The notes under the pieces are model-generated. The model saw only the letters and a list, made by a program, of their open reading frames with translations, was not told where the DNA came from and searched no databases. The position numbers and the translations under genes are program-made. From Polyangiales bacterium (GTDB taxonomy: Bacteria; Myxococcota_A; Polyangia; Polyangiales; JADJQN01): DNA of 64,000 nucleotides. Positions 21,372 through 46,957 of this stretch are shown here, piece after piece (within the stretch, counting starts at the first letter, position 1; every line of letters starts with the position of its first letter). The stretch is from positions 128,001 through 192,000 of the forward strand of contig CAXNJO010000005.1 in NCBI GenBank assembly GCA_964202905.1. Reading direction: 5' to 3'.

Positions 21372-22925
<1,554 letters not shown>

Positions 22926-22938
22926 CCGCGCCGCGCGC

Positions 22939-23420: not shown

Positions 23421-23434
23421 TGAATGGCCATTCA
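23421..23434. promoter_or_regulatory. Perfect 14-bp palindrome TGAATGGCCATTCA, candidate TetR-type operator
   Basis: AT-rich self-complementary site ~60 bp upstream of the acyl-CoA dehydrogenase ATG, just downstream of a TTGCAG -35-like hexamer (23394). Confidence 0.6.
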
Positions 23435-23492
23435 GCGGACCGCGGGTGCACACGCCGTGCGCCACGCGCGCGTCCGGAGGAGAGCACAGCCC

Positions 23493-24668: not shown

Positions 24669-24695
24669 TTTCAGGCCGATACGACAGGAGATCTC

Positions 24696-26081: not shown

Positions 26082-29000
26082 TCAGCGACGCCGACGGCGC
26101 GCGAGGGCGAGCGCGACGAGCGCGACGGCGAGCGCCCCGGAGAGCCCGCGCCCTGCGTGACCCGCGCCGGCCGCGCGGCACCCGCAGTCCCCGGAGACGG
26201 TGCGCACGTCCGGGCCGCCCGCGTCCGCGCCGCCGTCGCGCGAAGCGTCCGCATCCCCCGCGTCCGCGGCGCCCGCATCGGGCACGCCCGCGTCGGTCTG
26301 CGCGTCGCAACGGGACATGCTCGTGCAGTCGTCCGCGGCGTCGAACGCCGTCCCCGTCCCGTAGATCGCACAGCTCACCATCATCGACGACACCATCGCC
26401 GCAGAAGGCGTTCTTGCAGGTGGTGCGGCACGCGCCCGTGCGTCGTGTCGGAGTTCGCGTCACCGGCGTCGCACGCCTCGCCCGCGTCGAGGACTGCGTC
26501 GCCGCAGAACGCGCGCACACACCGCGTGCGGCACGCATCGGGCCGTCATATCGGAGTTGGCATCCGCGTCGTCGCACTCCTCGCCTGCGCCCGTGTCGAC
26601 GAGCCCATCGCCGCACGTCGCCGAGCAGACGCTCGCCGCGCCCGTGAGCTCGAAGCACGCCCAGCCCGGCTCGACGTCACACGCCTCGCTGCACCCGTCG
26701 CCCGGCGCGAGGTTCCCGTCGTCGCACGCCTCGCCGAGGCCGCGCAGCCCGTTTCCGCAGCGCGAGGTGCACGCCGCCTCCGGCGTCGCGCGCGCGAAGC
26801 CCGGCGCGCAGTCGCACACGAACGGCCCACCGAGCACGTTCACGCAGACCTCGTCGAGCTCGCAGCGCCCCGTCCCGTCCGCGCACTCGTCGATGTCGGT
26901 GCAGATCAGGAGACCCGCTCCCTCGTAACCCGGGTTGCACGTGCACGTGTACGCGCCGACCGTGTTGGTGCAGGCGGCGAGCGGCGAGCACTCGTTGAGC
27001 CCGACCGCCGCGCACTCGTCGACGTCCGTGCAGGACATGCCCGTGCCCTCGTAGCCGGCGTCGCAGGCGCAGGTGAACCAGCCGTCGATGTTCGTGCAGG
27101 TCGCGTTCGCGTCGCAGTCGTCCGTGCCCGCAGCGCACTCGTCGACGTCGGTGCAGGTGCCGCCGAAGACCGGCGCGACGTAGCCGGACGGACACGAGCA
27201 GAAATACTGCGTCGGCGGCCCCTGCGAGCAGTTGCCGACACCGCACGGCAGCGACGCGCACTCGTTGATGTCGACGCAGCGCCCCTCCTCCGCGAAATAT
27301 CCGTCCGGGCAGGTGCACGCATACGAACCCGCGCTGTTCGCGCAGCTCCCGGGCGCGCAAGGCGTCCCTGTGACGCATTCATTGACGTCGGCGCATGCAC
27401 CGCCCGCCGCCGGCGCCGCATAACCCGTGTTGCACACGCACGCATACGTCCCGGGCAGATTCGAGCAGGCCACTCGCTCGGCTCCGCACGTGGTCGCCGT
27501 CGCGCACTCGTTCACGTCCGTACACGCGCCGCCCGCCGCGGGCGCCGTGTAGCCCGACGCGCACGTGCACGTGTATCCGCCCGCCGTGTTCGTGCAGCCC
27601 GTCCGCGCCGTGCCGCACGTCGACGACGTCGCACACTCGTTGACGTCCGTGCACGTGCCACCCGTCCCGGGGCCGGTGTACCCCGCCGGGCAGGTGCAGG
27701 CGTACGTCCCGGCCTGGTTCGCGCAGCTGCCCGCGCCGCAGGGTGCGCCGCTCGCGCACTCGTTCACGTCCGTACACGCGCCGCCCGTCGCGGGCGCTGC
27801 GTAGCCCGCGGCGCACCCGCACGTGTAGCTGCCCGCCGTGTTCGTGCAGCCCGTCCGCGCCGTGCCGCACGTCGTCGGCGACGCGCACTCGTTCACGTCC
27901 GTACACGCGCCGCCCGTCGCGGGCGCCGTGTAGCCCGACGCGCACCCGCACGTGTAGCTGCCCGCCGTGTTCGTGCAGCCCGTCCGCGCCGTGCCGCACG
28001 TCGTCGGCGACGCGCACTCGTTCACGTCCGTACACGCGCCGCCCGTCGCGGGCGCCGTGTAGCCCGACGCGCACCCGCACGCGTAGCTGCCCGCCGTGTT
28101 CGTGCAGCCCGTCCGCGCCGTACCGCACGTCGACGCCGTCACGCACTCATCCACGTCCGTACACGCGCCGCCCGTCGCGGGCGCCGTGTAGCCCGACGCG
28201 CACGCGCACGTGTAGCTGCCCGCCGTGTTCGTGCAGCCCGTCCGCGCCGTGCCGCACGTCGACATCGTCGTGCACTCGTTCACGTCCGTGCACGCGCCGC
28301 CAGAGGCCGGGGCCGTGTAGCCCGCCGCGCAACCACACGCATAGCTGCCCGCGGTGTTCGTGCAGGACGTCCGCGCCGTGCCGCACGTCGACATCGTCGC
28401 GCACTCGTTCACATCACTACAGGTGCCGCCCGTCATCGGGCCCGTGTAGCCGGACGGGCACGCGCACGCGTAGGTTCCGGCGCTGTTCGTACACGTCCCG
28501 GCGCCGCACGGCGTCCCCGCCGTGCACTCGTTGACGTCCACGCAGGTCGCGCTGAGCCCGCTGCCAGAGCCGCTGAACCCCGCAGCGCAACCACAGCTGT
28601 AGCCGCCCGTCGTGTTCGTGCAGGTGTTGGTCGCCGAAAGGTTGCGGCCGCAGGTCGTCATCGTGGCGCACTCGTTGACGTCCGCGCACGTCGTGCCGTT
28701 GAACGAGTATCCCGCCGGACAGGAGCAGGAGTAGGAACCCGCGGCGTTCGTGCACGTGCCGAGTCCGCAGGGCGCGCCGCTCGCGCACTCGTTGACGTCA
28801 ACGCACGTCGTGCCATTCGACGTGTAACCCGTGGGACACGTGCACGTGTAGCTGCCAGCCGTGTTCGCGCAGCTGCCGACACCACAGGGCGAACCGCTCG
28901 CGCACTCGTTGATGTCCGTGCAGCCGGTGCCGCCCGACGCCGCCGTCCGCCCGTTACCGGTATAACCCGCGATGCACGCGCACGTGTAGCTCGTTGGCGT

Positions 29001-31345
29001 GTCGGTGCAGAGAGCGAGCGTCGCCACGCAGACGTTCATCCCCGTCGTGCACTCGTTGTCGACGACGCAGGTCGTGCCGTTGAAGCCATAACCGGCCGCG
29101 CACGTGCACGAATAACTGCCCGTCGCGTTCGTGCAGGTTCCGTAGCCGAGGTTGGCATTGCAGGTCGTCGCGGTGCTGCACTCGTTCACGTCGACGCAGC
29201 TCGCCGTGAGCCCGCTGCCCGAGGCCGTGAAGCCCGTGCCGCACGCGCAGGTGTACCCACCGCTCGTGTCCGTGCAGGCGTTGGCGCTCCCGCCGGTGAG
29301 CGTGCGACCACACCGCGAGGCCGTCGCGCACTCGTTGATGTTCACGCACGTCACGCCGTTCGACGAATACCCGGCGGGACACCCGCACGTGTACGAACCC
29401 GCCGTGTTGGTACACGTGCCGACGCCGCAGGGGTTCGACGGCGAACATTCGTTGTTGTCCACGCACGTCCCGCCCGTCGGACGTGTAGCCCGACGGGCAA
29501 CCGCACGTGTACGAGCCCGCCGTGTTCGTGCACGTCCCCGCGCCGCACGGCGTGCCCGACGTACACTCGTTGTTGTCCACGCACGTCACGCCGTTGGACG
29601 TGTAGCCCGACGGGCAACCGCACGTGTACGAGCCCGCCGTGTTCGTGCACGTCCCCGCGCCGCACGGCGTGCCCGACGTGCACTCGTTGTTGTCCACGCA
29701 CGTCACGCCCGTTGGACGTGTAGCCCGACGGGCAACCGCACGTGTACGAGCCCGCCGTGTTCGTGCACGTCCCCGCGCCGCACGGCGTGCCCGACGTACA
29801 CTCGTTGTTGTCCACGCACGTCCCGCCCGACGACGTGTAACCCGACGGACAACCGCACGTGTACGAGCCCGCCGTGTTCGTGCACGTCCCCGCGCCGCAC
29901 GGCGTGCCCGACGTACACTCGTTGTTGTCCACGCACGTCCCGCCCGACGACGTGTAACCCGACGGACAACCGCACGTGTACGAGCCCGCCGTGTTCGTGC
30001 ACGTCCCGACGCCGCATGGCGTGCCCGACGTACACTCGTTGTTGTCCACGCACGCCCCGCCCGACGGCGGTGCGGTGTAGCCAGACGCGCACGCACAGAC
30101 ATAACTGCCCGTCGTGTTCGAACAGCCCGTGCGAGCCGAGCCGCACGTCGAGCCCAAGAGACACTCGTTCGTGTCCGTGCACGTGAGCGAGGCCCCCGTC
30201 CCCGTCGCCTCGAACCCGCTGACACACGAGCACGAGTAGGCTCCCGTCGTGTTGTTGCAGGTCCCGTAGCCGACGTGCGCGTTGCAGCGCGTCGAAGCAC
30301 TGCACTCATTGGTGTCCACGCAGGTCGCGCTCAGCCCCGTACCGGAGACCTGGAATCCGCTGCTGCACGAGCACGAATAACTGCCGGAAGAGTCCGTACA
30401 GGTGCCGTAACCGAGGTTGGCGTTGCACGTCGCCGATGCGCTGCACTCGTTGATGTTCCGACAAGTCTCTGCGAAGCCCCCCGAATAGACCCCCGAATAG
30501 ACCTCTTCGAAGCCGGCGCCACACGTGCAGTCGTAGTAGCCGCCGTATTCCGCACAAGAATTGGCGCTGCCGTTCGTCAACGTGCGACCGCAGGTCGCGA
30601 GCGTCGCGCACTCGGCGATATCCGTGCAGCCGCTCGCGCTCGCATCCGCGACACCGTCGGAGGGCCAATCATAACGCCCGTTCCCGGAGTAGCCCGAGGG
30701 GCAGCTGCAATCGAAACCGAAGTAGTAGGTTCCCGTCGGATCGACGCCCGCGCTGAGACGCGTCTCCGAGTCGTCCTCGGTGCAGATCGCACCCAGCGAT
30801 GTGTAGCAATTCGTGAAGGGGTACGTCCCTGAAGGCAATTGACTGACGAGAAGGCACTCGCTCGTCGAATAGAGCGTCGGTTCGCCCGGTCGCGTGGCAT
30901 AGGCCGACTGAGCCGTGGTGTAGCCCGGAGAGGGGATCGACCACGACGACCCCTGATAGACCAGCTCGTGCCAGTTGGGTTTCCCGTCAGCGTCCGAATC
31001 TTCGTTGCGGAGCGCGGCGTCCCACGTGTAGCCGGAATGCGACCCCGCGGCGCGCGTCCACGTCCCCTGGAAGTCGCGGCCGAAGATGTTCCAGCAATAT
31101 CCGTAGGGGTTGTTGGTCCCCTCGCCCGGCCCACAAGCACAGTCACCCGTGCACGTCAGGCCCTCGGTGCAGCAGCCCTGACCACCGCTCGCGTTGTTGT
31201 GGCAGGTGAGGCAGCCGTGCGCATACGCGTTGGGCACCAGGTCCAGGTAACCGGGGTACGCAGCTGCGGTATTGGCGACCGCCCAGATCGAGGCGAACAC
31301 GAGCACGAACCCGACCCGGTTTGCCAAACATCGCCACATCGTCAT
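26082..31345 (-). CDS. MYXO-CTERM surface protein 1: signal peptide, CxxCH temptin-like head, ~30 cbEGF repeats, myxobacterial Cys-rich (DUF4215-like) repeats (~1750 aa; frameshifts at ~29710, ~29478, ~26370-26530)
   Basis: Joined from ORFs 29351..31426, 28954..30309 (part), 26460..29462, 25918..26658 (part) and 26082..26396. Head [22 protein letters not shown]; DxNEC..CxNxxGSYxCxC repeats; [11 protein letters not shown]; tail [26 protein letters not shown]. Confidence 0.85.
27756..28410. repeat. 129-bp (43-aa EGF) coding tandem repeat, about 5 copies
   Basis: Unit [43 protein letters not shown]; anchors at 27885 and 28014. Confidence 0.85.
29449..30054. repeat. 117-bp (39-aa EGF) coding tandem repeat, 5 copies; two units are 118 bp (the frameshifts)
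   Basis: (c/t)tcgttgttgtccacgcac at 29448, 29566, 29683, 29801, 29918 and 30035. Confidence 0.9.
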
Positions 31346-31388
31346 TCGCATTGCTCCCCCCGACACGGCGACGTCGCCGGAAGACCTC

Positions 31389-34300
31389 TCACCCGCGCGT
31401 CCGGCGCCGGCGCATGCGTGCGGCAAGCACGACGAGCGCGCTCAGCCAGGCGGCGACGAGCGCGCCATTCTCGTCGTGCGTGCCCGCACCCGCCGCGCGA
31501 CACCCGCAACCATCCTCGATCGGCGTCACCGTCGGGACCGACGCGTCGATCCCCGCATCGGGCACCTCCACCGCGCCGTCCACGTCGACGCCCGCGTCGT
31601 CCCCGACGGGCACGCCCGCGTCCGTCTCCGCCGCACAGCGCTCCGCACTCGTGCACGCGTCCGCCGAGGCAGCCGGCTCACCCGTGCCGAAGTCGCAGAG
31701 CTCGCCGTCGTCGACGACCCCGTCACCGCAGAACGCGCGCTTGCACGTCGTGCGGCACGCGCCCGTGTTGGTGTCGGAGTTGAGGTCGCCGTCGTCGCAC
31801 TCCTCGCCCGTGTCGAGGACGGAGTCGCCGCAGAACGCGCGCACGCAGCGCGCGCGACACGCATCGACCGCCGTGTCGGAGTTCGACCCCGCGTCGTCGC
31901 ACTCCTCGCCGGCGCTCGAGTCGATGAGGCCGTCCCCGCAGGTCGCGGCGCAGGTGCTCACCGTCAGCTCGGGCTCGAAGCACGCGTAGCCCGGCTCGAC
32001 CTCGCAGCGCTCGTTGCAGCCGTCGCCGGCGACGAGGTTCGCGTCGTCGCACAGCTCACCGACGCCGCGGATCCCGTTGCCGCAATTCGACGCGCAGGCC
32101 GCGTCGGGCGTGGGCCGCGCGAAGCCGGGCGCGCACTCGCACGTGAACGGCGCGCCGAGCACGTTCACGCAGATCTCACCGGATTCGCAGCGCCCGGTGC
32201 CGTCGGCGCACTCGTCGACGTCGGCGCAAGTCACGCCGCTGCCCTCGTAGCCCGGGTTGCACGCGCAGGCGTACGAGCCCGGCGTGTTGGTGCAGGCGGC
32301 GAGCAGCGAGCACTCGTTGAGCGACGTGCTCGCGCACTCGTCGACATCGGTGCACGCGTTGCCCGGGCCCTCGTAGCCCGCGTTGCACGTGCACGTGAAG
32401 CCGCCGTCGATGTTGGCGCACGCGGCGTTCGCGTCGCAGTCGTCCGTCCCGAGCGCGCACTCGTCGACGTCCGAGCAGGTGCCGCCGAAGCCGGGCGCCT
32501 CGTAGCCCGCCGGACACGAGCAGAAGTACTCGGTCGGCAGGCCCTGCACGCAGGTGCCGACGCCACACGGCAGCGGTCCGCACTCGTTGATGTCGATGCA
32601 GCGTCCCTCCTCCGCGAGGAAGCCCGCCGGGCACGTGCACGCGTAGGAGCCCGCGGTGTTCGCGCACGTGCCGGGGTCGCAGGGAGACCCGGCGCACTCG
32701 TCGACGTCGGCGCAGGCGCCGCCCGTCGCGGGCGCCGCGTAGCCCTCCAGGCACTCGCAGGCCCAGGTGCCGGGGAGGTTGGTGCAGGCCGCGCGCGCGT
32801 CCCCGCACGTCGTCGCCGTCGCGCACTCGTCGATGTCGTCGCACACGCCGCCCGTCGCGGGCGCCGCGTAGCCCTCGTTGCACGCGCACGCGTAGCTGCC
32901 CGCCGTGTTCGTGCAGCCCGCGCGCTCCGCGCCGCACGTCGTCGCGGTCGCGCACTCGTCGACATCGGTGCACGAGCCGCCGGAGGCCGGGGCCACGTAG
33001 CCGCCCGGGCAGGTGCAGACGTAGCTGCCGCCGACGTTCGCGCAGGCGCCGAGCCCGCAGGGCGCGCCCGCCGCGCACTCGTCTACGTCGGTGCACGCGC
33101 CACCCGAGGCCGGCGCCGTGTAGCCCGCCGCGCAGCCGCACACGTAACTGCCCGCCGTGTTCGTGCACGTCTCGCGCGCGTCCCCGCACGTCTCACTGAA
33201 TGCGCATTCATCGACGTCCGCGCACGCCCCGCCCGCGGCCGGCGCCGTGAAGCCCGCCGCGCAGCCGCACACGTAGCTGCCCGCCGTGTTCGTGCACGAG
33301 GAGCGGGCACTCCCGCACGTCGCGCTGAGCGCGCATTCATCGACGTCCGCGCACGCCCCGCCCGCGGCCGGCGCCGCGAAGCCCGCTGCGCATGCACAGA
33401 CGTAGCTGCCCGCCGTGTTCGTGCAGCCTGCGCGCTGTGGGCCGCAGGTCGCGGCGTTCGTGCACTCGTTCACGTCGCTGCACGTGCCGCCCGTCGCGGG
33501 TCCGGCGTAGCCGGCGGGACACGTGCAGGCGTACGAGCCCGCGAGGTTCGCGCAGGCGCCGAGGCCGCACGGCACGCCCGTCGTGCACTCGTTGGTGTCG
33601 ACACACGTCGCCGAGAGGCCGCTGCCCGAGGTCCGGTACCCGGCGCCGCACGCGCACGCGTAACCACCCACCGAGTTGGTGCACGTCCCCGCGCCCGCGG
33701 ACGCGCCGCAGGTCGTCGGCGTCACGCACTCGTCCACGTCCGCGCAGGAGGCGCTGAGTCCGCTGCCCGAGGCCGCGAAGCCCGCGCCGCAGCCGCACGT
33801 GTAGCCACCCGACGTGTCCGTGCACGCGTTGACCGCGCCGCCGGTGAGCAGGCGCCCGCAGCGCGAGTCGGTCGCGCACTCGTCGACGTTGACGCACGAC
33901 GCCGTCAGGCCGCTGCCCGACGCCTGGAAGCCCGCGCCGCACGCGCACGCATAGGACCCCGACGCGTCCGTGCAGGCGTTGACGACGCCGCCCGTGAGCA
34001 CGCGTCCGCACTGCGACGCCGTCGCGCACTCGTTCACGTTCACGCACGTCGCGGTCGCGCCAGTGCCCGAGAGCACGAAGCCCGCGCCGCAGCCGCACGT
34101 GTAGCCGCCCGACGTGTCCGTGCACGCGTTGACGGCGCCGCCCGCGAGCGTCCGGCCGCACTGGGACGCGGTCGTGCACTCATCGACGTTCACGCACGTG
34201 GCCGTCGCGCCGCTGCCCGAGAGCACGAAGCCCACGCCGCAGCCGCACGTGAAGCCGCCCGACGTATCCGTGCACGTGTTCACCGTGCCGCCGGTGAGCG

Positions 34301-37300
34301 CGCGCCCGCACTGCGACGCCGTCGCGCACTCGTTCACGTTCGCGCACGTCGCCGAGAGCCCGCTGCCCGAGAGCGAGAAGCCCGCCCCGCAGGTGCAGGT
34401 GTAACCGCCCGTCGTGTCGGCGCAGGCGTTCACGCCGCCGCCCGTGAGCGCGCGTCCACACTGCGACGCCGTCGCGCACTCGTTCACGTTCGTGCACGTC
34501 GCCGAGAGGCCGCTGCCCGAGGCGCCGAAGCCCGCCGCGCACGTGCACGTGTACCCGCCCGACGTCTCCGTGCACGCGTTCGACGTCGACACGTCGCGCC
34601 CGCACGTCGCGGCCGTCGCGCACTCCGCGATGTCCACACAACTCGCGCTGAGCCCGCTGCCCGACGCCTGGAATCCCGCGCCGCACGCGCACGTGAAGCC
34701 ACCCGAGGTGTCCGTGCAGGCGTTGACGGTGCCGCCCGTGAGCGCGCGTCCGCACTGCGACGCGGTCGCGCATTCGTTCACGTTCACGCACGTCGCGGAG
34801 AGCCCGCTCCCCGAGAGCACGAAGCCCGCGCCGCACGTGCACGTGTAGCCACCCGTCGCGTCCGCGCAGGCGTTGACGCCGCCGCCCGAGAGCGCGCGAC
34901 CGCACTGCGACGCCGTCGCGCACTCGTCGACGTTCACGCACGTCGCCGACGCGCCGCTGCCCGAGAGCACGTAGCCCGCGCCGCAGCTGCACGTGAAGCC
35001 GCCCACCGTGTCGGTGCAGGTGTTGGTCGCCGAGAGGTTCTTGCCGCACGCCGTCGTCGCGAGACACTCGTTCACGTCGCCGCACGAGGCGCTGAGCCCG
35101 CTGCCCGTCGGCAGATAGCCGCTGCCGCACGCGCACGCGTAACTGCCGACGGAGTTCGTGCAGCCGTTCGTCGCGGAGAGGTTCTGCCCGCACGTCGTCG
35201 AGGTCGCGCACTCGTTGACGTCACCGCAGTTCAGCGTCGCGCCGCTGCCCGTCGTCGCGTAGCCCGCGCCGCAGCCGCACGTGAACGCACCGACCGTGTT
35301 GGTGCAGGTGTTGAGCGGCGAGAGGTCCTTGCCGCACGCCGACGCAGAGCCGCACTCGTTGACGTCCACGCACGCGGCGGTGAGGCCGCTGCCCGCGGCG
35401 GTGAAGCCGGTCGCGCAGCCGCATGCATACCCACCCGCCGAGTTCGTGCAGGTGTTGCTCGCCGAGAGGTCACGGCCGCAGGTCGAGGCCGTCGCCGTGC
35501 ATTCGTTGATGTCCGCGCACGTCGCGCTCAGGCCGGAGCCAGAGGCCTGATAGCCGCCCGTGCAGCCGCACGCATACCCACCCACCGAGTTCGTGCACGT
35601 GTTGCTCGCCGAGAGGTTCTTGCCACATGCGCTCGCGGACGCGCACTCGTCCACGTCCACGCACGTCGCCGACGCGCCGCTGCCCGAGAGCACGTATCCG
35701 GCGCCGCAGCCGCACGTGAAGCCGCCCACCGTGTCGGTGCAGGTATTGGTGGCCGAGAGGTTCCTGCCGCACGCCGTCGTCGCGAGACACTCGTTCACGT
35801 CACCGCACGACGCGCTGAGCCCGCTGCCCGTGGGCAGATAACCGCTGCCGCACGCGCACACATAACTGCCGACGGAGTTCGTGCAGCCGTTCGTCGCGGA
35901 GAGGTTCTGCCCGCACGTCGACGGTCGTCGCGCACTCGTTGACGTCGCCGCAACTCAACGTCGTGCCGCTGCCCGTCGTCGTGTAACCGGCGCCGCACCC
36001 GCACGTGAACGCGCCCACGGTGTTGGTGCAGGAGTTGAGCGACGAGAGGTCCTTGCCGCACGCCGACGAGGAGCCGCACTCGTTCACGTCCACGCACGCG
36101 GCGGTGAGTCCGCTGCCCGCGCTCTGGAAGCCCGCTGCGCAGCCGCACGCATAGCCACCCACCGAGTTCGTGCAGGTGTTGGTCGCCGAGAGGTCACGGC
36201 CGCAGGTCGAGGCCGTCGCCGAGCATTCGTTGATGTCCGCGCAGGTCGCGCTGAGACCGGAGCCGGAGACTCTGGTACCCCGCCGTGCAACCGCACGCGT
36301 AGCCGCCCACGGAGTTCGTGCAGGTGTTGCTGGCGGAGAGGTTCTTGCCGCACGCCGTCGACGCCACGCACTCGTCGACGTCGACGCACGTCAGCGTGGC
36401 GCCGCTCCCCGACGACGCGTAGCCCCCCGCGCAGCCGCACGTGTAACCGCCGCTGTTGTTCGTGCACGTGTTCGACGCCGAGAGGCTCCGACCGCACGCG
36501 GAGGTCACCGCACACTCATCGACGTCGACGCAGGTCAACGAGGCGCCGCTCCCCGACGACGCGTAGCCCGAGCCGCAACCGCACGAGAAACCGCCCACGG
36601 TGTTCGTGCAGGTGTTGGTCGCGGAGAGGCTCTGCCCGCACGTCGTGGTCGTCGCGCACTCGTTGGTGTCGACGCACGTCGTGCCGTTGAAGTTGTAGCC
36701 GGTCGGACACGAGCAGCTGTACGAGCCGGTCGCGTTCGTGCAGGTGCCGAGTCCGCACACCGAGCCGCTCGAGCACTCGTTCACATCCACGCACGTCGTG
36801 CCGTTCGACGTGTAGCCCGCCGGGCACGAGCAGTTGTAGGAGCCGGCCGAGTTCGTGCAGGCGCCGACGCCGCACACCGAGCCGCTCGAGCACTCGTTGA
36901 CGTCCGTGCAACCCGTCCCGCCCGAGGCGACGGTGCGCCCGTTGCCCGTGTAGCCGGACGGGCACGCACAGGTGTAGCTCGTGGGCGTGTCCGTACAGAC
37001 CGCGACCGAGGGGACACACACGTTCATGCCCGTCGTGCACTCGTTCTCGACGACGCAGGTCGTGCCGTCGAAGCCATATCCGCTGCTGCACGAGCACGAG
37101 TAGCTGCCCGTGGCGTTCGTGCACGTGCCGTAGCCGAGGTTCGCCGCGCAGGTCGTCGACGTGCTGCACTCGTTCACATCACCGCAGCTCGCGCTGAGGC
37201 CGCTTCCCGTGCCTTGATAGCCGCTGCCGCAGGCGCACGTGTAGCCGCCGACCGTGTTCGTGCACGTGCCGTATCCGACGTTGACGTTGCAGGTCGCGAC

Positions 37301-40300
37301 GTTGCTGCACTCGTTGACGTCCGCGCAGGTGGCCGAGAGACCGCTGCCCGAGAGGACGAAACCCGAACCGCACGCGCACGTGTATCCGCCCGAGGTGTCG
37401 GTGCAGCCGTTGAGCGCGGAGAGGTTCTTGCCGCACGCAGAGGCCGATGCGCACTCATCCGCGTTGACGCACGTCGCCGAGAGGCCGCTGCCCGAGACCA
37501 CGAAGCCCGCGCCGCACGAGCACGCGTAGCCGCCCGACGTGTCGGTGCAACCGTTGACGCTCCCGCCCGAGAGCGTGCGGCCGCACTGCGCGGTGGTCGC
37601 GCACTCGTTCACGTTCACGCACGTCGCCGACAGCCCGCTGCCCGAGGCGACGTAGCCCGCGCCGCACGAGCACGTGTATCCGCCCGTCGTGTCCGTGCAG
37701 GTGTTGCCCGCGGAGAGGTCCTTGCCGCACGCCGTCGACGACGTGCACTCGTTCACGTTCGCGCACGTCTCGGTCGCGGTGCCGTTCCCGCTCACCGCGT
37801 AGCCGGCGGCGCAGGTGCAGTCGTAGCCGCCCGCGAGGTTCGCGCAGGTGTTGCTCGTCGAGAGGTCCTTGCCGCACGCGGTCGACGACGCGCATTCGTC
37901 GTTGTCCGCGCAGGACTCGCTCAGCGTGCCCGAGCCCGTCTCGGTGAAGCCCGAGCCGCACGCGCAGCCGTAGCCGCCGGAGCTGTTCGTGCAGACGTTG
38001 GACGCCGAGAGGTTCTTCGCGCAGGCCGTCGCAGGCGCGCACTCGTCGAGGTCCGCGCACGACGCCGAGAGCCCGGTGCCCGTCGCGCCGAAGCCCGCGC
38101 CGCACGTGCACGCGAACCCGCCCGACGTGTTGGTGCAGGCGTTCGCGCCCCCGCCCGCCAGGTCACGCCCGCACTGCGAGGTCGTGCCGCACTCGTTCAC
38201 GTCGACGCATGTCGCGCTGAGCCCGCTGCCCGAGAGCACGAAGCCCGCACCGCACGTGCAGGCGTAGCCGCCCGAGCTGTCCGAACAGCCGTTGACGCTG
38301 CCGCCCGTGAGCGTGCGGCCGCACTGCGAGGCGGTCGCGCACTCGTTCACGTTCACGCACGTCGCGGAGAGCCCGCTGCCCGAGGCGACGTAGCCCGCGC
38401 CGCACGCGCACGTGTATCCGCCCGTCGTGTCCGTACACGTGTTGTCCGCCGAGAGGTCCTTGCCGCACGCCGTCGACGACGTGCACTCGTTCACGTTCAC
38501 GCACGTCTCGGTCGCGGTGCCGTTGCCGCTCACCGTGTAGCCGGCCGCGCACGTGCAGTCGTAGGCGCCCGCCAGGTTCGCGCAGGTGTTGCTCGCGGAG
38601 AGGTTCTTTCCGCACGCGGTCGCCGACGCGCACTCGTCGTCGTCCGCGCACGTCTCGCTGAGCGTCCCCGAGCCCGTCTCCGTGAAGCCCGTGCCGCACG
38701 CGCAGCCGTAGCCCCCCGAGCCGTTCGTGCAGACGTTCGACGCCGAGAGGTTCTTCGCGCACGCCGTCGACGCCGCACACTCATCGACGTCCACGCACGT
38801 CGCGCTCAGCCCCGTGCCGGAGAGCGCGAAGCCCGCGCCGCACGTGCACAGATAGCCCCCGGAGCTATCCGAGCAGACGTTGACGCTCCCGCCCGTCAGC
38901 GTGCGTCCGCACCGCGAGGCCGTCCCGCACTCATCCACGTTCACGCACGTCGCGCTGAGACCGCTCCCGGAGGCCGTGAAGCCCGCGCCGCACGTGCACG
39001 CATAACCTCCGGAGCTGTCCGAGCAGGCGTTGACGCTCCCGCCCGTGAGCGTGCGGCCGCACTGCGAGGCCGTGCCGCACTCATCCACGCTCACGCACGT
39101 CGCGCTCAGCCCGGTTCCCGAAGACGTGAATCCCGCGCCGCACGTGCACGTGTATCCGCCGGTCGTGTCGCTGCAGGTGTTCGTGCCGGAGGCGCCGAGA
39201 TCCTTGCCGCATGCGGTCGCCGACGCGCACTCATCCACGTTCACGCACGTCTCGGTCGCCGTGCCGTTGCCGCTCACGGTGTAGCCCGCGGCGCACGTGC
39301 AGTCGTAGCCGCCGGCGGCGTTCGCGCAGGTGTTGCTCGCCGAGAGGTTCTTGCCGCACGCCGTGGACGCCGCGCACTCGTCCGTATCGACACACGTCTC
39401 GCTGAGCGTGCCCGAGCCCGTCTCGGTGAAGCCCGCCGCGCACGCGCAGCCGAAGCCGCCCGAGCTGTTCGTGCAGGTGTTGGAGGCCGAGAGATTCTTG
39501 CCGCACGCGGTCGCCGCGGCGCACTCGTCGAGGTCCGCGCACGACGCCGTCGCGCCGCTGCCCGTTGCGCCGAAGCCCGCGCCGCACGTGCACGTGAAGG
39601 AGCCCGACGTGTTCGAGCAGGCGTTCACGGTCCCGCCCGTCAGCGTGCGCCCGCACTGCGAGGCCGTCGTGCTGCACTCGTTCAAATCCGCGCACGACGC
39701 GGAGAGACCGCTCCCCGACGCCGCGAAGCCCGTCCCGCAGGTGCACGCGTAGCCGCCCGACGAGTCCGAACACGAGTTGAGCGCCGACAAATCCTTGCCG
39801 CACGCCGTCGACGACGTGCACTCGTTCACGTTCACGCACGTCGCCGTCAGGCCGCTGCCAGACGCCGTGTAGCCCGCGCTGCACGTGCACGAATACCCAC
39901 CTGACGAATCCGAACACGTGTTGAGCGCCGACAAATCCTTGCCGCACGCCGTCGACGACGCGCACTCGTTCACGTTCACGCACGTCGCCGTCAGTCCGCT
40001 CCCGGAGGCCGTGTAGCCCGCGCCGCACGTGCACGAAAACCCACCTGACGAATCCGAACACGTGTTGAGCGCCGACAAGTCCTTGCCGCACGCCGTCGAC
40101 GACGCGCACTCATCCACGTTCACGCACGTCGCGCTCAGCCCGCTTCCCGAAGACGTGAATCCCGCGCCGCACGTGCACGCGTAGCCGCCCGACGAGTCCG
40201 TGCAGGAGTTCACGCTCCCGCCCGTCAGCGTCCGACCGCACTGCGACGTCGTCCCGCACTCATCCACGTTCACGCACGTCGCGCTCAGCCCGCTTCCCGA

Positions 40301-42214
40301 AGACGTGAATCCCGCGCCGCACGTGCACGCGTAGCCGCCCGACGAGTCCGTGCAGGAGTTCACGCTCCCGCCCGTCAGCGTCCGACCGCACTGCGACGTC
40401 GTCCCGCACTCATCCACGTTCACGCACGTCGCGCTCAGCCCGCTTCCCGAAGACGTGAATCCCACGCCGCACGTGCACGCGTAGCCGCCCGACGAGTCCG
40501 TGCAGGAGTTCACGCTCCCGCCCGTCAGCGTCCGACCGCACTGCGACGTCGTCCCGCACTCATCCACGTTCACGCACGTCGCGCTCAGCCCGCTTCCCGA
40601 AGACGTGAATCCCGCGCCGCACGTGCACGCGTAGCCGCCCGACGAGTCCGTGCAGGAGTTCACGCTCCCGCCCGTCAGCGTCCGACCGCACTGCGACGTC
40701 GTCCCGCACTCATCCACGTTCACGCACGTCGCGCTCAGCCCGCTTCCCGAAGACGTGAATCCCGCGCCGCACGTGCACGCGTAGCCGCCCGACGAGTCCG
40801 TGCAGGAGTTCACGCTCCCGCCCGTCAGCGTCCGACCGCACTGCGACGTCGTCCCGCACTCATCCACGTTCACGCACGTCGCGCTCAGCCCGCTTCCCGA
40901 AGACGTGAATCCCGCGCCGCACGTGCACGCGTAGCCGCCCGACGAGTCCGTGCAGGAGTTCACGCTCCCGCCCGTCAGCGTCCGACCGCACTGCGACGTC
41001 GTCCCGCACTCATCCACGTTCACGCACGTCGCGCTCAGCCCGCTTCCCGAAGACGTGAATCCCGCGCCGCACGTGCACGCGTAGCCGCCCGTGCTGTTCG
41101 CGCAGGTGTTCGTGCCCGAGCTCCCGAGATTCTGACCACACGTCGAGGTGGTGCTGCACTCGTTGGTGTCCGCGCACGACTCGCTCAGCGTGCCGTTGTT
41201 CCTCACCGAAAAGCCGGCGCCGCACGTGCAGTCGTACGCCCCGCTCGAGTTCGTACAGCTGTTGACGCTGCCGCCCGTCAACGTGCGACCGCAGGTCGAG
41301 GAGGTCGAGCACTCGTTGTCGTCCGCGCACGACTCGCTCAGCGTGCCGCTGCCCGTCACCGAGAAGCCGGCGCCGCACGTGCAGTTATAGCTACCCGCGG
41401 AGTTCGTACAGGAGTTGGCGCTGCCGCCGGTCAACGAGCGACCGCAGGTCGAGGCGGTCGAACACTCGTTGATGTCCGTGCAACCGGTCGCGCCGCTGTC
41501 GGAGATGCCGTCGGAAAGGTGGTCGACGCGACCGTTGCCGGTGTAGCCCGCGTCGCACGAGCAATCGAAACCGAAATACCAGGAGCCCGTCGGCTCCCCG
41601 GACAGCGAGCTCTCAGCGTCGTCCTCCGCACAGTCCACGTAGCTCCCCGACGCGCAGTTCGTGAAGGCGAACGACGAGGAGGAGAGAACGGAGTCGAGGT
41701 AGCACTCGTTCGTGTCGTAGCTGGTGCTGCTGCCCGGGCGCGTGGAATAGGCCGTGTACGGGTCCGCGGTGCCCGGCGTCCACGACGAGCTCGTGTAGAC
41801 GAGCTCGTGCCAGTTGGGTTTGCCGTCGCTGTCGGAGTCCTCCGTGCGGAGCGCAGCGTCCCAGGAGAACGCGGTGTGGGTGCCCACCCCCGAGCGCGTC
41901 CAGGCGGTGCCGAAATCACTCCCGAAGATGTTCCAACACTTGCCGTACGAGTTCGTGACGGTGTCGTTGGCCGTGGTGCACGCCGTGGTGCCGGGGTCAG
42001 TGGCACAACAGTTCTCGCCCGCGCTGCAAGGCGGAGAGGGGCAGTTGCTGCCGCCGTAAGCGTTGTTGTGACAGGTCAGGCAACCATGCGTCGCGCCGTT
42101 CGGGACGTCGTCGAGGTAGAACGACCAGGCGGCCGCCCGCGACGCGAAGGCGCCCATCGCGAGCAGCGCGAGCGAACACCACAGCGAGAGTGTGTTGAGC
42201 CGAACCGACGACAT
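31389..42214 (-). CDS. Giant MYXO-CTERM surface protein 2: signal peptide, CxxCH temptin-like head, roughly 60-70 cbEGF repeats, DUF4215-like repeats (~3600 aa; single extra bases at ~36271 and ~35922)
   Basis: ORFs 36194..42220, 35800..36162 and 31389..35861 join after removing one base each; GGGGAG RBS before the ATG at 42214; head [22 protein letters not shown]; tail DGCGCRAAG..LVAAWLSALVVLAARMRRRRTRG. Confidence 0.88.
40105..41091. repeat. Almost perfect 150-bp (50-aa EGF) tandem array, ~6.6 copies
   Basis: cgcttcccgaagacgtgaat at 40141, 40291, 40441, 40591, 40741, 40891 and 41041; the only difference I saw is g>a at 40464 (Ala>Val). Confidence 0.95.
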
Positions 42215-42298
42215 GGTCACTCCCCCAGACGACGACGAGACGAACCCGGAACCTGCGAACTGAGACCCACGCCCCGCGCCGCGGAACGCGCGAGTCGC

Positions 42299-44776
42299 TC
42301 AGCGTCGCGGGCGGCGACGGCGCGAGACGCGCGCAGCAAGCAGCGCGACGAACCCGAGCGCGAGCAGCGTCGGGCCCGAGTCGCGCGACGACCCGCCCGC
42401 CGCGCGGCAGCCGCAGCCCCCGTCGGACGCCGGGCCGGGCGGCGGCAGCGAGGCGTCGCCCGCGCCCCCGTCGGGCACGCCACCGTCGGCCGCGCCCGCG
42501 TCCCCGACGCCCATATCCGCCGGCGGATTGCCACAGAACGGGTCGTCGACGTGCTCGCAGTCCTGCATGTCGGCCGTGCAGCGGTCGGTCGTGCACGGGT
42601 CGGCGTCGTCGCAGACCGTCGCCGGGCCGCAGAGACACTGCGAGTCGGCCAGATCGATCCGGCCGTCACAATCGTTGTCGATGGTGTCCTCGCAGGCCTC
42701 GGAGGCGCGCGGTGTGATGGCGGCGTCGGTGTCGTCGCAGTCGGCGCCGAAGCGGTCCTCGCCGAGGTCGAGACAGTCGCCGTCGCCGGTGTCGTCGATG
42801 CCCATCCCGCAGAAGCCGTCACGGTCGCGGTCGAGCAGGTAGAAGCAGCCGGTGTCGAGGAGGTCGACGTCGCCGTCGCAGTCGTCGTCCTTCGCGTTGC
42901 CGCAGGCCTCCGTCGAGCCCGGGTTCAGCTCCGCGCGTCGGTCGTCGCAGTCGCTCACCGCGAGGTTCTCGCCGCTGTCGAGGCAGTCGCCGTCCCCGTT
43001 GAGGTCGCGGCCGATCGGACAATAGCCGTCCATGTCCGCATCGACGTCACGCACGCAGTCGGTGTCGTCGCGGTCGACGCTGCCGTCCTGATCGTTGTCC
43101 TTGCGGTCGAGGCAATTCTCACGCGCCGTCGGATAGATGGTCGGATCGTAGGGCGCGACGTCGGTGCCGCCGCCCTGCTCGGCGGTGTCGGAGCAGTCAC
43201 CGTCGCCGTTCGTGTCCGGACCGATCTCACACCAGCCGTCACGATCGAAATCGAGGTAGCGCGTCGAGCACGACGAGTCGTAGGCATCGATGCTGCCGTC
43301 ACAGTCGTTGTCGACGGCATCGGTGCAGAACTCGGTCGCCGCCGGGTTGAGCGCGGCGGCGGCGTCGTCGCAATCGGTGCTGCCGCTCTCCTCGCCTGCA
43401 TCCGCACAATCGCCGTCGGTGTTGCGATCGAAGCCGACGAAGCAATACCGATCGCGGTCACCGTCGAGATATCCGGCGCAGTCCACATCGGCGAGGCTCA
43501 CGACGCCATCGCAGTCGTCGTCGATCGCGTTCGTGCAGAGCTCGCCGAGCCCGGGGCTGCGCGCGGCGCTCGCGTCGTCGCAGTCGACGACGCTGCCCTC
43601 CTCGCCCGGATCCGCGCAGTTTCCGTCGCCGTCGAGGTCGCGCCCGCCGGGGCAGTAGCCGTCGCCGTCGCCGTCGCCGAGCCGCGCGCAGGCCTCGTCG
43701 AGGAAATCGACGAATTCATCGCAGTCGTTGTCGAGTCCATCACCGCACGTCTCGGCGAGCCCGGGGCTGACCATCGGGTTCGCGTCGTCGCAGTCGGAGG
43801 TCCCCGACGCCTCACCGGCGTCGCGGCAGTTGCCGTTGCCGTTGAGGTCCCGCCCGATCGGGCAGTAGCCGTCCATGTCGTCGTCGCCGTCACCCGTGCA
43901 GCGCGGGTCGGCGAGGTCGATGAGCGCGTTGCAGTTGTTGTCGATGCCGTCGCCGCAGTTCTCGCCGCCGCCCGGCTTCACGGTCGCGCGGGTGTCGTCG
44001 CAATCGACCGTCCCGTCGTCCTCCCCCGCGTCGGTGCAGTCCCCGTCGCGGTTCATGTCGCGGCCCATCACGCAGGCGGAGTCGCCATCGGCGTCGAAGA
44101 CGCTCGCGCACTCGGAGTCCGAGCGCGGCGCCTGTCCGTCACAGTCGTTGTCGAGGCCGTTGGCGCAGATCTCGGTGATGCCCGAGTTCACCGTCGACAT
44201 CGTGTCGTCGCAATCGACCGCGGCACTCGCCGTCGTCTCCTCGGGGCTGGTGCAGTCACCGTCCGCGTCGAGGTCACGGCCGAAGTAGCAATAGCCGTCC
44301 ATGTCGGCGTCGCGCAGGCCGGGGTTGTCCGACGGGAAGCCGGGACGCGTGCGGTAGGCGGGGACGCCGGGGGCCGGCTGGCCGGGCCGCCAGACACCGA
44401 GCGGATCCTGCAATTCCTGGCCGTTCGTGAAGCCGTCCATGTCGGCGTCCATCCCGGCGAGCGCGGCGCTCCAGGCGAACGACGCGGTGCGGAACTGGGT
44501 GCCGAAGGGGTTCAGGCAGAACGGGACGTCGGTGGCGCCGTAGACGTCCATCCCCACGCAGCCCGAGCCGCCGTCGGGGTTGTTGTGGCAGTTGATGCAA
44601 GGCCGCACCGTGCCGACCGAGTTGGCCGTCGTCGCCGGGTTCGGGACGCGCGCCGCGTAGTACTCGTGCGCCGAGGCGGAGAGCGGCGCGACGGTCACGA
44701 CACAAAACGCGAGGCCGAGTGTCGATGCGATCCGGATGCGGTCCACGGCCCCTCGTATGAAGTTGGGAAGACGCAT
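42299..44776 (-). CDS. MYXO-CTERM surface protein 3: signal peptide, CxxCH temptin-like head, 8 MopE-related (putative metal-binding) Asp/Cys repeats
   Basis: Head HEYYAARVPN..CINCHNN..LNPFG..DADMDGFTNGQELQDP..W..TRPG; repeats DxDxDGYC..GRDxNxDGDC..DCDD..PG..ExC.NxxDNDCDG..D; tail GGCGCRAAGG..LLALGFVALLAARVSRRRRPRR. Confidence 0.88.
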   Translation of the reverse strand: MRLPNFIRGAVDRIRIASTLGLAFCVVTVAPLSASAHEYYAARVPNPATTANSVGTVRPCINCHNNPDGGSGCVGMDVYGATDVPFCLNPFGTQFRTASFAWSAALAGMDADMDGFTNGQELQDPLGVWRPGQPAPGVPAYRTRPGFPSDNPGLRDADMDGYCYFGRDLDADGDCTSPEETTASAAVDCDDTMSTVNSGITEICANGLDNDCDGQAPRSDSECASVFDADGDSACVMGRDMNRDGDCTDAGEDDGTVDCDDTRATVKPGGGENCGDGIDNNCNALIDLADPRCTGDGDDDMDGYCPIGRDLNGNGNCRDAGEASGTSDCDDANPMVSPGLAETCGDGLDNDCDEFVDFLDEACARLGDGDGDGYCPGGRDLDGDGNCADPGEEGSVVDCDDASAARSPGLGELCTNAIDDDCDGVVSLADVDCAGYLDGDRDRYCFVGFDRNTDGDCADAGEESGSTDCDDAAAALNPAATEFCTDAVDNDCDGSIDAYDSSCSTRYLDFDRDGWCEIGPDTNGDGDCSDTAEQGGGTDVAPYDPTIYPTARENCLDRKDNDQDGSVDRDDTDCVRDVDADMDGYCPIGRDLNGDGDCLDSGENLAVSDCDDRRAELNPGSTEACGNAKDDDCDGDVDLLDTGCFYLLDRDRDGFCGMGIDDTGDGDCLDLGEDRFGADCDDTDAAITPRASEACEDTIDNDCDGRIDLADSQCLCGPATVCDDADPCTTDRCTADMQDCEHVDDPFCGNPPADMGVGDAGAADGGVPDGGAGDASLPPPGPASDGGCGCRAAGGSSRDSGPTLLALGFVALLAARVSRRRRPRR

Positions 44777-44786: not shown

Positions 44787-45983
44787 TCAGTTGCGGGTGA
44801 TGCGGAGGCGATAGGGAGCGGGTGCGGTGGCGCCGAGGTCGGAGGCGCGCACCCAGATCGTGTAGACGCCCGTCGGCAGGCCCTGCGCATCGACGCTCGG
44901 GCACGGCGCGCCCGTCACCGGTGTGCCGCGCGGATTGCCGAGCGCATCGCGGAGTTGGATCGTGTAAAGCGTGCTCGAGGGGCTCGTGCACACGGCACCC
45001 GCCGCGGTGAGCGAGTCGACGCGGATGTCGGTGCCCATCGTATCGACGCGCACCTCGAAGACGTCGGGATAACAATCCCCACCGCCGCCGACGTCACCGG
45101 AGATCTCGACCTCCGTCGTCGTCGCGCCGACGAACAGCACCTGATTGGCCTCGACCGAGTTGTCGTTGAACTCGGCCTCGGTGGGGAAGTCACCCATCGT
45201 CGTGCGGCCGACGAGCTTGCGACAATTCGGGGAGCAGGTCCCCGACGCCATGTCGTCGCAGGACTCGCCGTGCTCCTGGATGCCGTTGCCGCACTGCGGG
45301 CGGAAGGCGTCGAGCTGGTAGTGGCCGCCGCCCGGATTCGCGTCGTCGATGCCGATGTAGAAGCGGCCGGGCGCAGGCGCGACGAACGCGAAGTGCTCGT
45401 CGGAGCGGCCCGCGCACGAGTTTGCGAAGACCGCGGCGCAGTTCGTCGGCCGGTCGTTGCAGCCGCCGGCGCCGTCGCTGCCGACGACGTAGACGATGGG
45501 GTCGCGCATCGTTTCGGTCGGCGCGAACATCGGATCGGCCGCGACGTGGAAGTGCCAGTACTCGCCGGCGGCGACGTCGATCGCGAAGTAGCGGTCGTTG
45601 CCGCGCGCAGTCGAGCCGGCGCACGAGGGCGTGAGCGAGGAGGCCGTGGCGTCCGTCGTGTCGATCTTGAGCGAGCGCGTCGTGCCCGCGAGCACGAGCG
45701 TCATCGGATCGCCGCAGATGTCGGCCGCCACTGCTACCGGCGGGCCGAGGTCGGGCGAGCCGAGATCCGGATCGCCGAGGTCGGGCGAGCCGAGATCCGG
45801 ATCGCCGAGGTCGATGCCGGCGTCGAAACCGGCGTCCACGGTCCCCGATGGGAGCGACTCGTAGAAGGACGCGTCGACCACGAAGCAGCCCGAGAGCCCG
45901 ATGGCGACGAGGGGCGCGCCGACCGCCGCGAGGCCGGTGCGCAGGGGACGGAGAAGCGAAACGTGCATGTGGGTCGTGGCCAT
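44787..45983 (-). CDS. Cys-containing lipoprotein with two PPC-like beta-sandwich regions around a myxobacterial Cys-rich repeat
   Basis: Lipobox GLSGC; DLG pentapeptide linker; DPIVYV..APAPGRFYIGIDD; CGNGIQEHGESCDD; LPTGVYTIWVR..PYRLRIT. Confidence 0.75.
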   Translation of the reverse strand: MATTHMHVSLLRPLRTGLAAVGAPLVAIGLSGCFVVDASFYESLPSGTVDAGFDAGIDLGDPDLGSPDLGDPDLGSPDLGPPVAVAADICGDPMTLVLAGTTRSLKIDTTDATASSLTPSCAGSTARGNDRYFAIDVAAGEYWHFHVAADPMFAPTETMRDPIVYVVGSDGAGGCNDRPTNCAAVFANSCAGRSDEHFAFVAPAPGRFYIGIDDANPGGGHYQLDAFRPQCGNGIQEHGESCDDMASGTCSPNCRKLVGRTTMGDFPTEAEFNDNSVEANQVLFVGATTTEVEISGDVGGGGDCYPDVFEVRVDTMGTDIRVDSLTAAGAVCTSPSSTLYTIQLRDALGNPRGTPVTGAPCPSVDAQGLPTGVYTIWVRASDLGATAPAPYRLRITRN

Positions 45984-45997: not shown

Positions 45998-46957
45998 TCA
46001 GAAGCGGTGCACGAAGCCCGCGACGCCGCCGTGTGCGTCGAGGGAGAGCGTGGGGAGCGTGCGGAGCGTGGCGCGTGTGGCCGGCGCCGCGGCCTCGCCA
46101 CCGCCCCAGTCGGTGAGGAAGAAGAGCACGGCCGTCGCCGCGCCGAACACGACGGTCCCAGCGAGGAAGACGTTGGTGAGCAGCTGCCGCGAGGCGGCGT
46201 CATCGTGAAGGAGCTTCGCCTGCGACTGCTGCGCGCCGGGCGCAGTGGCGTAGGTCTCGTAGTCGTCGTTCAGCGCAAGGGTGTCGAGACCCGCCCAGAT
46301 CGAGAGCCCACCCGCGACGGCCGTGAGCCCACCCGCGACGAAGAAGAGCGCGGGCGGCGTGCCACCGCTCGCGTCGGCGCCCGTCGGCGGCGGTGTGGGC
46401 TGCTCGCCCCCGCCCTGCTGCTGCGCGAGCTGCTCGCGCTCCGCGGCCTCGCGCGCTTCGCGCTCCGCGGCCTCACGCTGCTGCTCCGCGGCGCGCTCGC
46501 GCTCGCCCGCTGCGGCCTGATCGCGCTGCTCGATGGCCGTGCGGAGCACGCGGATGCGCGCCTCGATTTCGGTGCGATTGGCGACGTTCGGATCCGCGGC
46601 GAGGAAACGCTCGAAGGTCGAGAGCGCCTCGTCATCCTGACGAAGGCGATCGAGCGTCGTCGCGATGTTGAAGAGCAGGCCCGGGCGCGGGCTCGCCTCG
46701 TAGGCCTGACGGAACCGGGCGAGGGCCGTCGTGTAGTCGCCCTCGCCGAACGCGGTGCGGGCCGACTCGAACAAGAGCCGCGCGGCCTGATCGAGCGAGC
46801 CAGGCGCGGTGCCCCCCTGGGCCTGCGGCGCCGCCGGCGTGCCCGCGTCCGGCGAAGTACGCGGCTGCGCGGCGACGCGCGTGGCGCCGCTCGCAACGGT
46901 GGCGATCATCACCGCCGCGACGACCGCCGTCGCAGAGGCCCGCTTTGCATCAAACAT
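45998..46957 (-). CDS. Exported TPR protein with coiled coil, hydrophobic hairpin and C-terminal Phe
   Basis: Signal peptide; ARLLFESARTAFGEGDYTTALARFRQAYE..LLFNIA..DEALSTFERFL; two Gly-rich hydrophobic segments; ends GGVAGFVHRF. Confidence 0.8.
   Translation of the reverse strand: MFDAKRASATAVVAAVMIATVASGATRVAAQPRTSPDAGTPAAPQAQGGTAPGSLDQAARLLFESARTAFGEGDYTTALARFRQAYEASPRPGLLFNIATTLDRLRQDDEALSTFERFLAADPNVANRTEIEARIRVLRTAIEQRDQAAAGERERAAEQQREAAEREAREAAEREQLAQQQGGGEQPTPPPTGADASGGTPPALFFVAGGLTAVAGGLSIWAGLDTLALNDDYETYATAPGAQQSQAKLLHDDAASRQLLTNVFLAGTVVFGAATAVLFFLTDWGGGEAAAPATRATLRTLPTLSLDAHGGVAGFVHRF

Follow-up and report, generated by a model that had tools for sequence, protein, structure and literature searches.

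Introduction

Temptin is a member of the pheromone complex of the sea slug Aplysia. Animal temptin has been described as a pheromone 'glue' with a DSDXD calcium motif (PMC10075465). In lophotrochozoans, temptin replaces the DOMON domain on DBH-like monooxygenases (PMC2762978). We found no haem role described for the temptin family in the literature searched. Here we analyse a stretch of 64,000 nucleotides from a Polyangiales bacterium (contig CAXNJO010000005.1 of assembly GCA_964202905.1), referred to in its whole length as the window. It contains three tandem genes, genes 1 to 3, whose products each begin, right after the signal peptide, with a temptin-like domain (the head) that contains the motif CxxCH and is carried on a repeat stalk. 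An earlier note on this DNA had proposed a haem-bearing surface system that holds such heads at three distances from the cell. We find that the head is probably a monohaem c domain of a conserved bacterial family and that the array of three is a local elaboration.

Cytochrome f is a large protein, mostly of beta structure and anchored to thylakoids. Its haem ligands are His25 and the alpha-amino group of Tyr1, and His/alpha-amino ligation is known in cytochrome f, PefR and CooA (PMC8044140). Cyc2 carries the motif AXPXFAR[QK][TY] right before its CxxCH as well as a PXL motif (10.1101/228056). Electron paramagnetic resonance indicates two axial ligands in Cyc2 (PMC13692758), and AlphaFold 3 models show one His ligand only (PMC13741234). 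In Cyt572 the signal cut was placed at AANA/YPGF by Edman sequencing (PMC13741234). DOMON domains have been proposed to act as haem electron relays (PMC10691727). It has been proposed that proteins with the MYXO-CTERM sorting signal fold in the periplasm and then exit by way of type II secretion (T2SS; PMC11980579). SO_2930 is listed as outer-membrane/extracellular (PMC4837345).

The heads share with temptins (Pfam PF24784) the PN(G) element, the invariant His, N-x-FG, a Trp, DxDxDGxxNxxEL and a terminal PG. Both are exported and N-terminal, and oomycete copies have the same cleavage register. They differ in the motif, which is CxxCH in bacteria and xAxGH at the corresponding site in oomycetes, and in that bacterial copies sit on MYXO-CTERM stalks or on stalks of the type IX secretion system (T9SS) type. 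As in cytochrome f, the monohaem c would lie near the mature N-terminus with an alpha-amino sixth ligand; unlike cytochrome f, the head is a loop-rich domain of about 100 residues with an EF-hand loop and a surface stalk, and cytochrome f was not listed among its fold or PDB sequence matches. Cyc2 and Cyt572 likewise have an N-terminal monohaem segment that begins at a fixed signal-peptidase cut, and the Cyt572 cut resembles AAA/YPGY, the cut inferred for head 3. However, the heads lack the full AXPXFAR[QK][TY] and PXL motifs and the beta-barrel of Cyc2; those in the window show only A/x-[PES]-x-[FY] of the Cyc2 motif and have repeat stalks instead of a barrel. The DOMON domain and the cytochrome domain of cellobiose dehydrogenase would be functionally comparable, as small extracellular haem modules put forward as electron relays, but they are non-homologous beta-sandwiches that hold haem b via Met/His, and the DOMON domain of DBH binds no haem. 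Finally, signal peptide, Cys-rich stalk and MYXO-CTERM are shared with proteins of the TraA pathway. Cytochrome or haem cargo goes unmentioned in the passages searched of two papers on that pathway (PMC11980579, 10.1101/2023.06.07.544157), although supplementary lists of MYXO-CTERM proteins could hold such architectures.

The heads are a bacterial form of the temptin domain with conserved CxxCH

The three heads align to the consensus given in the earlier note, and their CxxCH motifs, all on the minus strand, lie exactly where it had put them. Head 1 matched Temptin_C (PF24784) with 45.6 bits (E 1e-11), above the 27-bit gathering cut-off, and the Atlas clusters found for the head were also Temptin_C. 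Heads 2 and 3, with 24.5 and 22.3 bits, fell just under this cut-off; they are 47% and 43% identical to head 1, respectively, and 62% identical to each other. The temptin likeness that the note had proposed is confirmed by the cut-off for head 1, which the other two narrowly miss. The note had also given GxGH as the counterpart of CxxCH in animal temptin; the oomycete temptins examined read [PAKE]A[IL]GH.

To define the family, we used a first set of 51 bacterial homologues, a profile of nine heads that matched 2975 representatives at E ≤0.001 and of which the best 150 were examined, and a second set of 87 loci, 80 of them retrieved by the EF-loop pattern and ranked by likeness to head 1 (best 80 of 248). 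CxxCH was present in 51/51 homologues of the first set, in all 141 near-full-length domains among the new proteins of the best 150, and in 90 of the 91 loop-bearing heads of the 87 loci, the single exception being a fragment. Eleven partial matches without CxxCH were excluded (EF-hand-like repeats, a fragment and an oomycete protein), as were two loop-less matches in the 87-locus set, one of which is a degenerate copy that also lacks CxxCH. The spacing of the motif is strict across bacterial heads. Past residue 230, the 51 homologues contain only 8 CxxC windows, 2 of which are the CxxCH of second heads, and because CxxC is so rare there the motif in the heads is not a matter of chance. Close relatives are labelled Myxococcota, Polyangiales or Sandaracinus, and the taxa with bacterial heads include Myxococcota, Ignavibacteria, Kapabacteria, Latescibacterota, Verrucomicrobia, Planctomycetota, Calditrichota and Omnitrophota.

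Oomycete-type copies had CxxCH in 0/119 cases and kept GH in 118/119. To our knowledge, haem c is not attached in eukaryotic secretory pathways, and the loss of CxxCH in oomycetes therefore fits haem c, since a structural disulfide would have been free to persist. Animal temptins were absent among the 120 matches listed in a eukaryote-directed search, all of which were of the oomycete type. In the literature searched, we found no paper describing the bacterial temptin domain: none of the temptin papers listed concerned bacteria by title, and temptin was absent from the papers listed in a search that combined it with haem. The bacterial form is real, widespread and apparently undescribed. Together with the maturation genes described below, these sequence patterns make it probable that the head is a monohaem c domain with haem attached at CxxCH.

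Two kinds of variant were observed. One head type has two CxxCH about 33 residues apart (P0169; L083:7782-8486), possibly a dihaem form, and tandem duplicates of short heads occur in non-myxobacterial genomes (L017, L019, L046, L057, L021 and L051, the last two including broken or degenerate copies).

The predicted mature N-terminus is fixed relative to the head

Beyond CxxCH, no column of 113 aligned sequences holds more than 15% Met plus His, and none of Met, His, Cys and Lys is kept throughout the family; a second Cys pair, in about 30 of the 113, marks the myxobacterial type. The position of the N-terminus, in turn, is nearly constant. The predicted signal cut lies exactly 8 residues ahead of a conserved Pro in 175 of 188 bacterial domains (next register, 73; 5 further domains without an anchor or too short were left out), in 42/43 heads of related genomes and in 116/117 oomycete copies (3 left out). 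The side chain of mature residue 1 is variable, being R in 93, F in 29, H in 24, L in 11 and K in 8 of the 188 domains; in the window, the mature proteins would start with His at 44668 (head 1), Trp at 42127 (head 2) and Tyr at 31258 (head 3). By contrast, the stretch from lipobox to core in the two lipoproteins of the gene-1 cassette (described below) is of varying length, 36-65 and 79-121 residues (15/30 and 26/33 parsed).

Most internal heads keep to the same rule. Among 319 matches, 8/8 internal heads are preceded by their own signal-like stretch. Of 17 longer oomycete models examined, 16 likewise have such a stretch before each internal copy, truncated starts aside; the seventeenth (P0320) holds four temptin copies, all without the signal-site register and without the GH motif. 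A fixed free amine with a variable side chain, an invariant His and no other conserved ligand together make the pattern that His/alpha-amino ligation would be expected to leave. If haem is bound, we consider it fairly likely on this pattern that the N-terminal alpha-amine takes the distal position, the arrangement known from cytochrome f.

A loop-rich domain with an EF-hand-type loop

The AlphaFold2 (AF2) model of head 1, built without haem, has a pLDDT of 91.5 and little secondary structure. The structure search for a temptin or cytochrome c fold that the earlier note had suggested matched no solved fold: the best Foldseek E was 3.0, and VIA-align gave no match at Z ≥2. Such null searches do not imply a new fold. 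PDB sequence searches with the head returned EF-hand loops (calmodulin), one unrelated weak match and a weak match to cytochrome c''. The loop D-x-D-x-D-G-x-x-N-x-x-E lies in the head's C-terminal half; its pattern is matched by 176 of 195 proteins, and it is flanked by short helices in the model. We infer from its motif that this EF-hand-type loop binds Ca2+.

Machinery for haem attachment and surface display

The cytochrome c maturation (Ccm) genes that the earlier note called for are present in the genome, with three PF01578 matches above the cut-off, CcmF-, CcmC- and CcsB-like fragments and CcmE above its cut-off. A further 50 host genomes, drawn from the 75 loci L013-L087, were scanned for PF01578, and 49 had it. 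For surface sorting, likewise claimed, the genome encodes a myxosortase (NF040914, 119.7 bits, cut-off 100) and the T2SS secretin GspD (TIGR02517, 502 bits, cut-off 351). The MYXO-CTERM tails themselves are above the TIGR03901 cut-off of 20 bits in gene 1 (24.5) and gene 3 (27.3). The tail of gene 2, to which the note had given the same signal, has no TIGR03901 match at E 0.01, and its GCGC, hydrophobic stretch and Arg tail were recognised by eye only. Folding in the periplasm ahead of T2SS exit, as proposed for MYXO-CTERM proteins, would allow haem attachment to come first.

Cytochromes as conserved neighbours

The gene-1-type head belongs to a cassette. In 33 of the 40 top-scoring loci, a lipoprotein gene lies directly upstream of the head gene. 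Of these cassette loci, 32 contain a TPR gene (the sole miss is at a contig end) and 30 contain an SO2930-type dihaem cytochrome (contig ends account for two of the three misses, and the third is genuine). The dihaem gene is relocated downstream, on the same strand, in four loci, two of which have a distant paralogue. Head-matching genomes carry just 1-10 SO2930-type cytochromes. In all frames of the window, CxxCH occurs only in the three heads and twice in this dihaem cytochrome, in agreement with the note's observation that the Cys-rich stalks have none. Like the SO2930 family (TIGR03806), the window's dihaem cytochrome is a lipoprotein with two CxxCH, but at 118.6 bits (E 3e-34) it is under the 313.3 cut-off and thus a homologue, not a member by cut-off, and it is paired here with a temptin-head operon. 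A match to NF041762 (GEGP dihaem protein) reached 27.5 bits, far under its cut-off of 300. Prediction of a complex between head 1 and the dihaem cytochrome scored 0.00, which is evidence neither way.

The cassette lipoprotein has no Pfam match. Its AF2 model (pLDDT 85) aligned to 1nqd with Z 11.1 and a root-mean-square deviation of 2.5 over 111 residues, as a PPC/collagen-binding-domain-like fold, and the Atlas leads were PPC-like, under 0.9. W-H-F-H, E-H-F and H-G-E are invariant, and their His and Glu residues are a possible metal site. At one locus (L012:10415-16373), a dihaem cytochrome gene and an OmpA-like gene lie between a MopE-type and an EGF-type head gene, an order that we take to be reminiscent of traA-traB.

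Outside the order, the head gene is directly followed by a gene for a Cyc2-like cytochrome-porin at 13 of 75 loci, each from an Ignavibacteria-like genome (L023:8576-9721, L029-L031, L047-L049, L052, L057, L062, L070, L074, L082). The head genes upstream of these porins are of the T9SS type. The Cyc2-like proteins have about 370 residues with an N-terminal A/LPRFA, CxxCH and a barrel-like body; of six scanned, one had a weak Porin_4 match and none an NCBIfam match. Their N-terminus is likewise fixed at the signal cut, so that an amine may be the sixth ligand of Cyc2-type proteins too. A Cyc2-like porin was not found in a profile search of the GC-filtered open reading frames of this genome. In 44 head architectures scanned, we observed fusions to glucose/sorbosone dehydrogenase (GSDH; 2/44) and to CHRD (4/44), as well as Ig stalks and T9SS tails. 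The GSDH fusions join the head to a propeller (P0131, P0158), and the CHRD fusions carry CHRD repeats (P0068, P0090, P0161, P0165). The redox context supposed in the earlier note is therefore borne out by the dihaem cytochromes, the Cyc2-like genes and the GSDH fusions.

Stalks and the origin of the three-gene array

Pfam matches support the two stalk types distinguished in the earlier note, MopE-type in gene 1 (PF11617 repeats, 8 stretches) and cbEGF in genes 2 and 3. Among relatives, 41 of 47 gene-1-type proteins are 765-867 residues long. Within the order, 61 of 301 genomes had a head match. A second head lies about 2.3-2.5 kb downstream in 12 of the 60 other head-positive genomes, and in none of those listed are there three in a row. 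Heads 2 and 3 are sisters, with an SH-aLRT support of 96 in a quick, unfinished tree search over 103 columns. Sister heads, and no row of three in the other genomes listed, point to a local duplication: gene 1 and its cassette form the conserved core, and the pair of genes 2 and 3 stems from a recent, lineage-specific duplication of an optional EGF-type gene with a long stalk. We accordingly reject the view that three tuned distances from the cell are a conserved design, and nothing in the analysis bears on the attack of prey that the note had also considered.

A cbEGF unit is about 2-2.5 nm long. At this length per unit, the stalk would reach about 60-80 nm in gene 3 and 130-170 nm in gene 2. 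These stalks are far beyond tunnelling range and have no haems, so that electron transfer would need the head to swing to its partners. A nanowire was considered and rejected, since the stalks contain no haem motifs.

In five records, head, stalk, CTERM, second signal, head and stalk follow one another in a single frame (P0008, P0012, P0053, L137:775-5652, L149:7746-12611; also P0083). By topology, two proteins, each with its own anchor, could arise from such a single open reading frame.

Layout of the locus and state of the assembly

The features discussed above are collected in Table 1. The start of the TPR gene was assigned from its ribosome-binding site. The plus-strand flank at 20158-25934 encodes a PPIC-type rotamase, an FHA sigma-54 activator, an acyl-CoA dehydrogenase and a thiolase. 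A fourth head gene of the genome (L001, G000:C1:890371-892000) lies downstream of an adenosine-deaminase-like gene; it combines CxxCH with a cbEGF stalk, has an N-terminal arm of 6 residues and is frameshifted.

Table 1. Head genes, head domains and cassette genes, in window coordinates
Feature	Position	Strand	Description
Gene 1	42299..44776	-	signal peptide, CxxCH head, MopE-type repeat stalk, MYXO-CTERM; 825 aa
Gene 2	31389..42214	-	signal peptide, CxxCH head, ~67 cbEGF units, Cys-rich acidic repeats, MYXO-CTERM-like tail; ~3600 codons
Gene 3	26082..31351	-	signal peptide, CxxCH head, ~31 cbEGF units, MYXO-CTERM; ~1750 codons
Head 1	44330..44668	-	CxxCH 44585-44599; one extra Cys pair; EF-hand-type loop
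Head 2	41726..42127	-	CxxCH 42068-42082; Cys-rich insertion
Head 3	30878..31258	-	CxxCH 31199-31213; sister to head 2
Cassette lipoprotein	44787..45983	-	two jelly-roll domains; stops 10 nt ahead of gene 1
TPR protein	45998..46957	-	signal peptide and hydrophobic C-terminus; Pfam TPR matches; first gene of the operon
Dihaem c-type cytochrome lipoprotein, SO2930-type	47136..48314	+	divergently transcribed; CxxCH at 47793 and 47991

Gene 2 contains 2 frameshifts, near 36270 and 35925, and gene 3 contains 5, near 29710, 29470, 26550, 26440 and 26370. An extra base at 26546 in gene 3 is absent from short-read contigs (two runs of one study, depth ~4). One such contig has 115 rather than 120 letters over 26327-26448; the net change is 6, which keeps the frame. 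The short-read allele departs from the assembly at about 20 further places at the end of gene 3. A consensus error is likely behind the three shifts there, although these other differences leave some doubt.

A proposed surface relay and its alternatives

We propose that, after Sec export, the Ccm system would attach haem to CxxCH, with the His of the motif as proximal ligand and the alpha-amino group made by signal peptidase as distal ligand. Ca2+ in the EF-hand-type loop would stabilise a domain that is poor in secondary structure, and myxosortase and the T2SS would anchor the protein on the outer surface, as sorting is understood from TraA work. The tethered head would then pass single electrons between cytochromes of the cell surface and a donor, acceptor or enzyme beyond it, as has been proposed for DOMON domains, and its likeliest surface partner would be the SO2930-type dihaem lipoprotein of the cassette. 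The stalk would provide reach, not conduction. As a whole, this calcium-stabilised monohaem c relay outside the cell has in our judgement about an even chance of being correct. More tentatively, and with the odds somewhat against it, temptin domains may constitute one haem family with His/N-terminal-amine ligation and a fold of its own, with c-type haem in bacteria and, in eukaryotes, a non-covalent or metal-swapped site, that serves as tethered extracellular relays for surface cytochromes and redox enzymes; the amine would then also be the sixth ligand of Cyc2 and Cyt572, and mollusc temptin would be redox-active or haem-derived.

Several observations weigh against the relay. The homologue sets were ranked by CxxCH-containing queries and thus favour CxxCH. 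Maturation genes are common, with PF01578 in 9 of 14 control genomes. Cleavage sites were placed by the (-3,-1) rule, by script and by eye, from small residues at -1 and -3, and in some EGF-type heads the arm counts 6, 9 or 12 residues or the Pro is missing. Two oomycete models, P0140 and P0199, hold an internal GH copy without a signal, although these may be merged gene models. The fixed N-terminus could equally be explained by a buried amine in a salt bridge or by a non-haem metal site. The syntenic genomes are kin, and two genomes of the same family have the dihaem cytochrome without a head match. The head profile aligned to the haem segment of the porin-cytochromes at 96.5% probability, but CxxCH controls reached 91.5% and 22.9%; with one control nearly as high, homology between the head and this Cyc2-like segment is only a lead. 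Lastly, frameshifts interrupt genes 2 and 3 in the present assembly.

Two other functions of the same site are possible, though each seems unlikely. The amine could be a labile ligand of haem c, displaced by NO, CO, O2 or peroxide, which would make the head a gas or oxidant sensor, sink or catalyst kept at a distance from the cell instead of an electron shuttle. His/alpha-amino ligation does occur in the haem sensors PefR and CooA (PMC8044140), the cytochrome c'' leads (sequence E 0.041; Foldseek rank 5, E 7.1) point the same way, and 31-67 cbEGF units hold the haem far from membrane wires. However, the c'' likeness is weak and centred on CxxCH, none of the 44 scanned architectures has a signalling output domain, and the conserved neighbours are electron-transfer cytochromes.

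We give a similarly low probability to a head without haem, in which the amine and the invariant His, joined in bacteria by both Cys residues, would form a Cu, Zn or Ni site or a redox CxxC disulfide beside a His. Fusion of lophotrochozoan temptin to copper monooxygenase domains (PMC2762978) speaks for a metal. Such a site would explain the amine register and the His kept in Cys-less oomycetes; residue 1 is itself His in 24/188 domains, and the adjacent lipoprotein has invariant His and Glu. However, cells with Ccm normally attach haem to an exported CxxCH, the spacing is strictly CxxCH and variants with two CxxCH exist (P0169, L083). Finally, a calcium-dependent adhesion or recognition tip with a structural CxxC disulfide is improbable, as recognition tips usually diversify while this core is conserved over many phyla, and as it leaves the invariant His, the eukaryote-only loss of CxxC, the fixed N-terminus and the cytochrome neighbours unexplained, even though the stalks are built of repeats typical of spacers, Ig stalks carry some of the other heads, animal temptin is a 'glue' with a Ca motif (PMC10075465) and the cassette lipoprotein has collagen-binding-domain-like folds.

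If the surface relay is correct, the heads would be a new class of c-type cytochrome that has no solved structural relative, whose ligation is known from very few proteins and which is displayed extracellularly in many poorly cultured phyla. It would suggest a partner for SO2930-type cytochromes and make the distal ligand of Cyc2-type iron oxidases testable. It would also provide a biochemical hypothesis for temptin, which is known mainly as a mollusc pheromone component.

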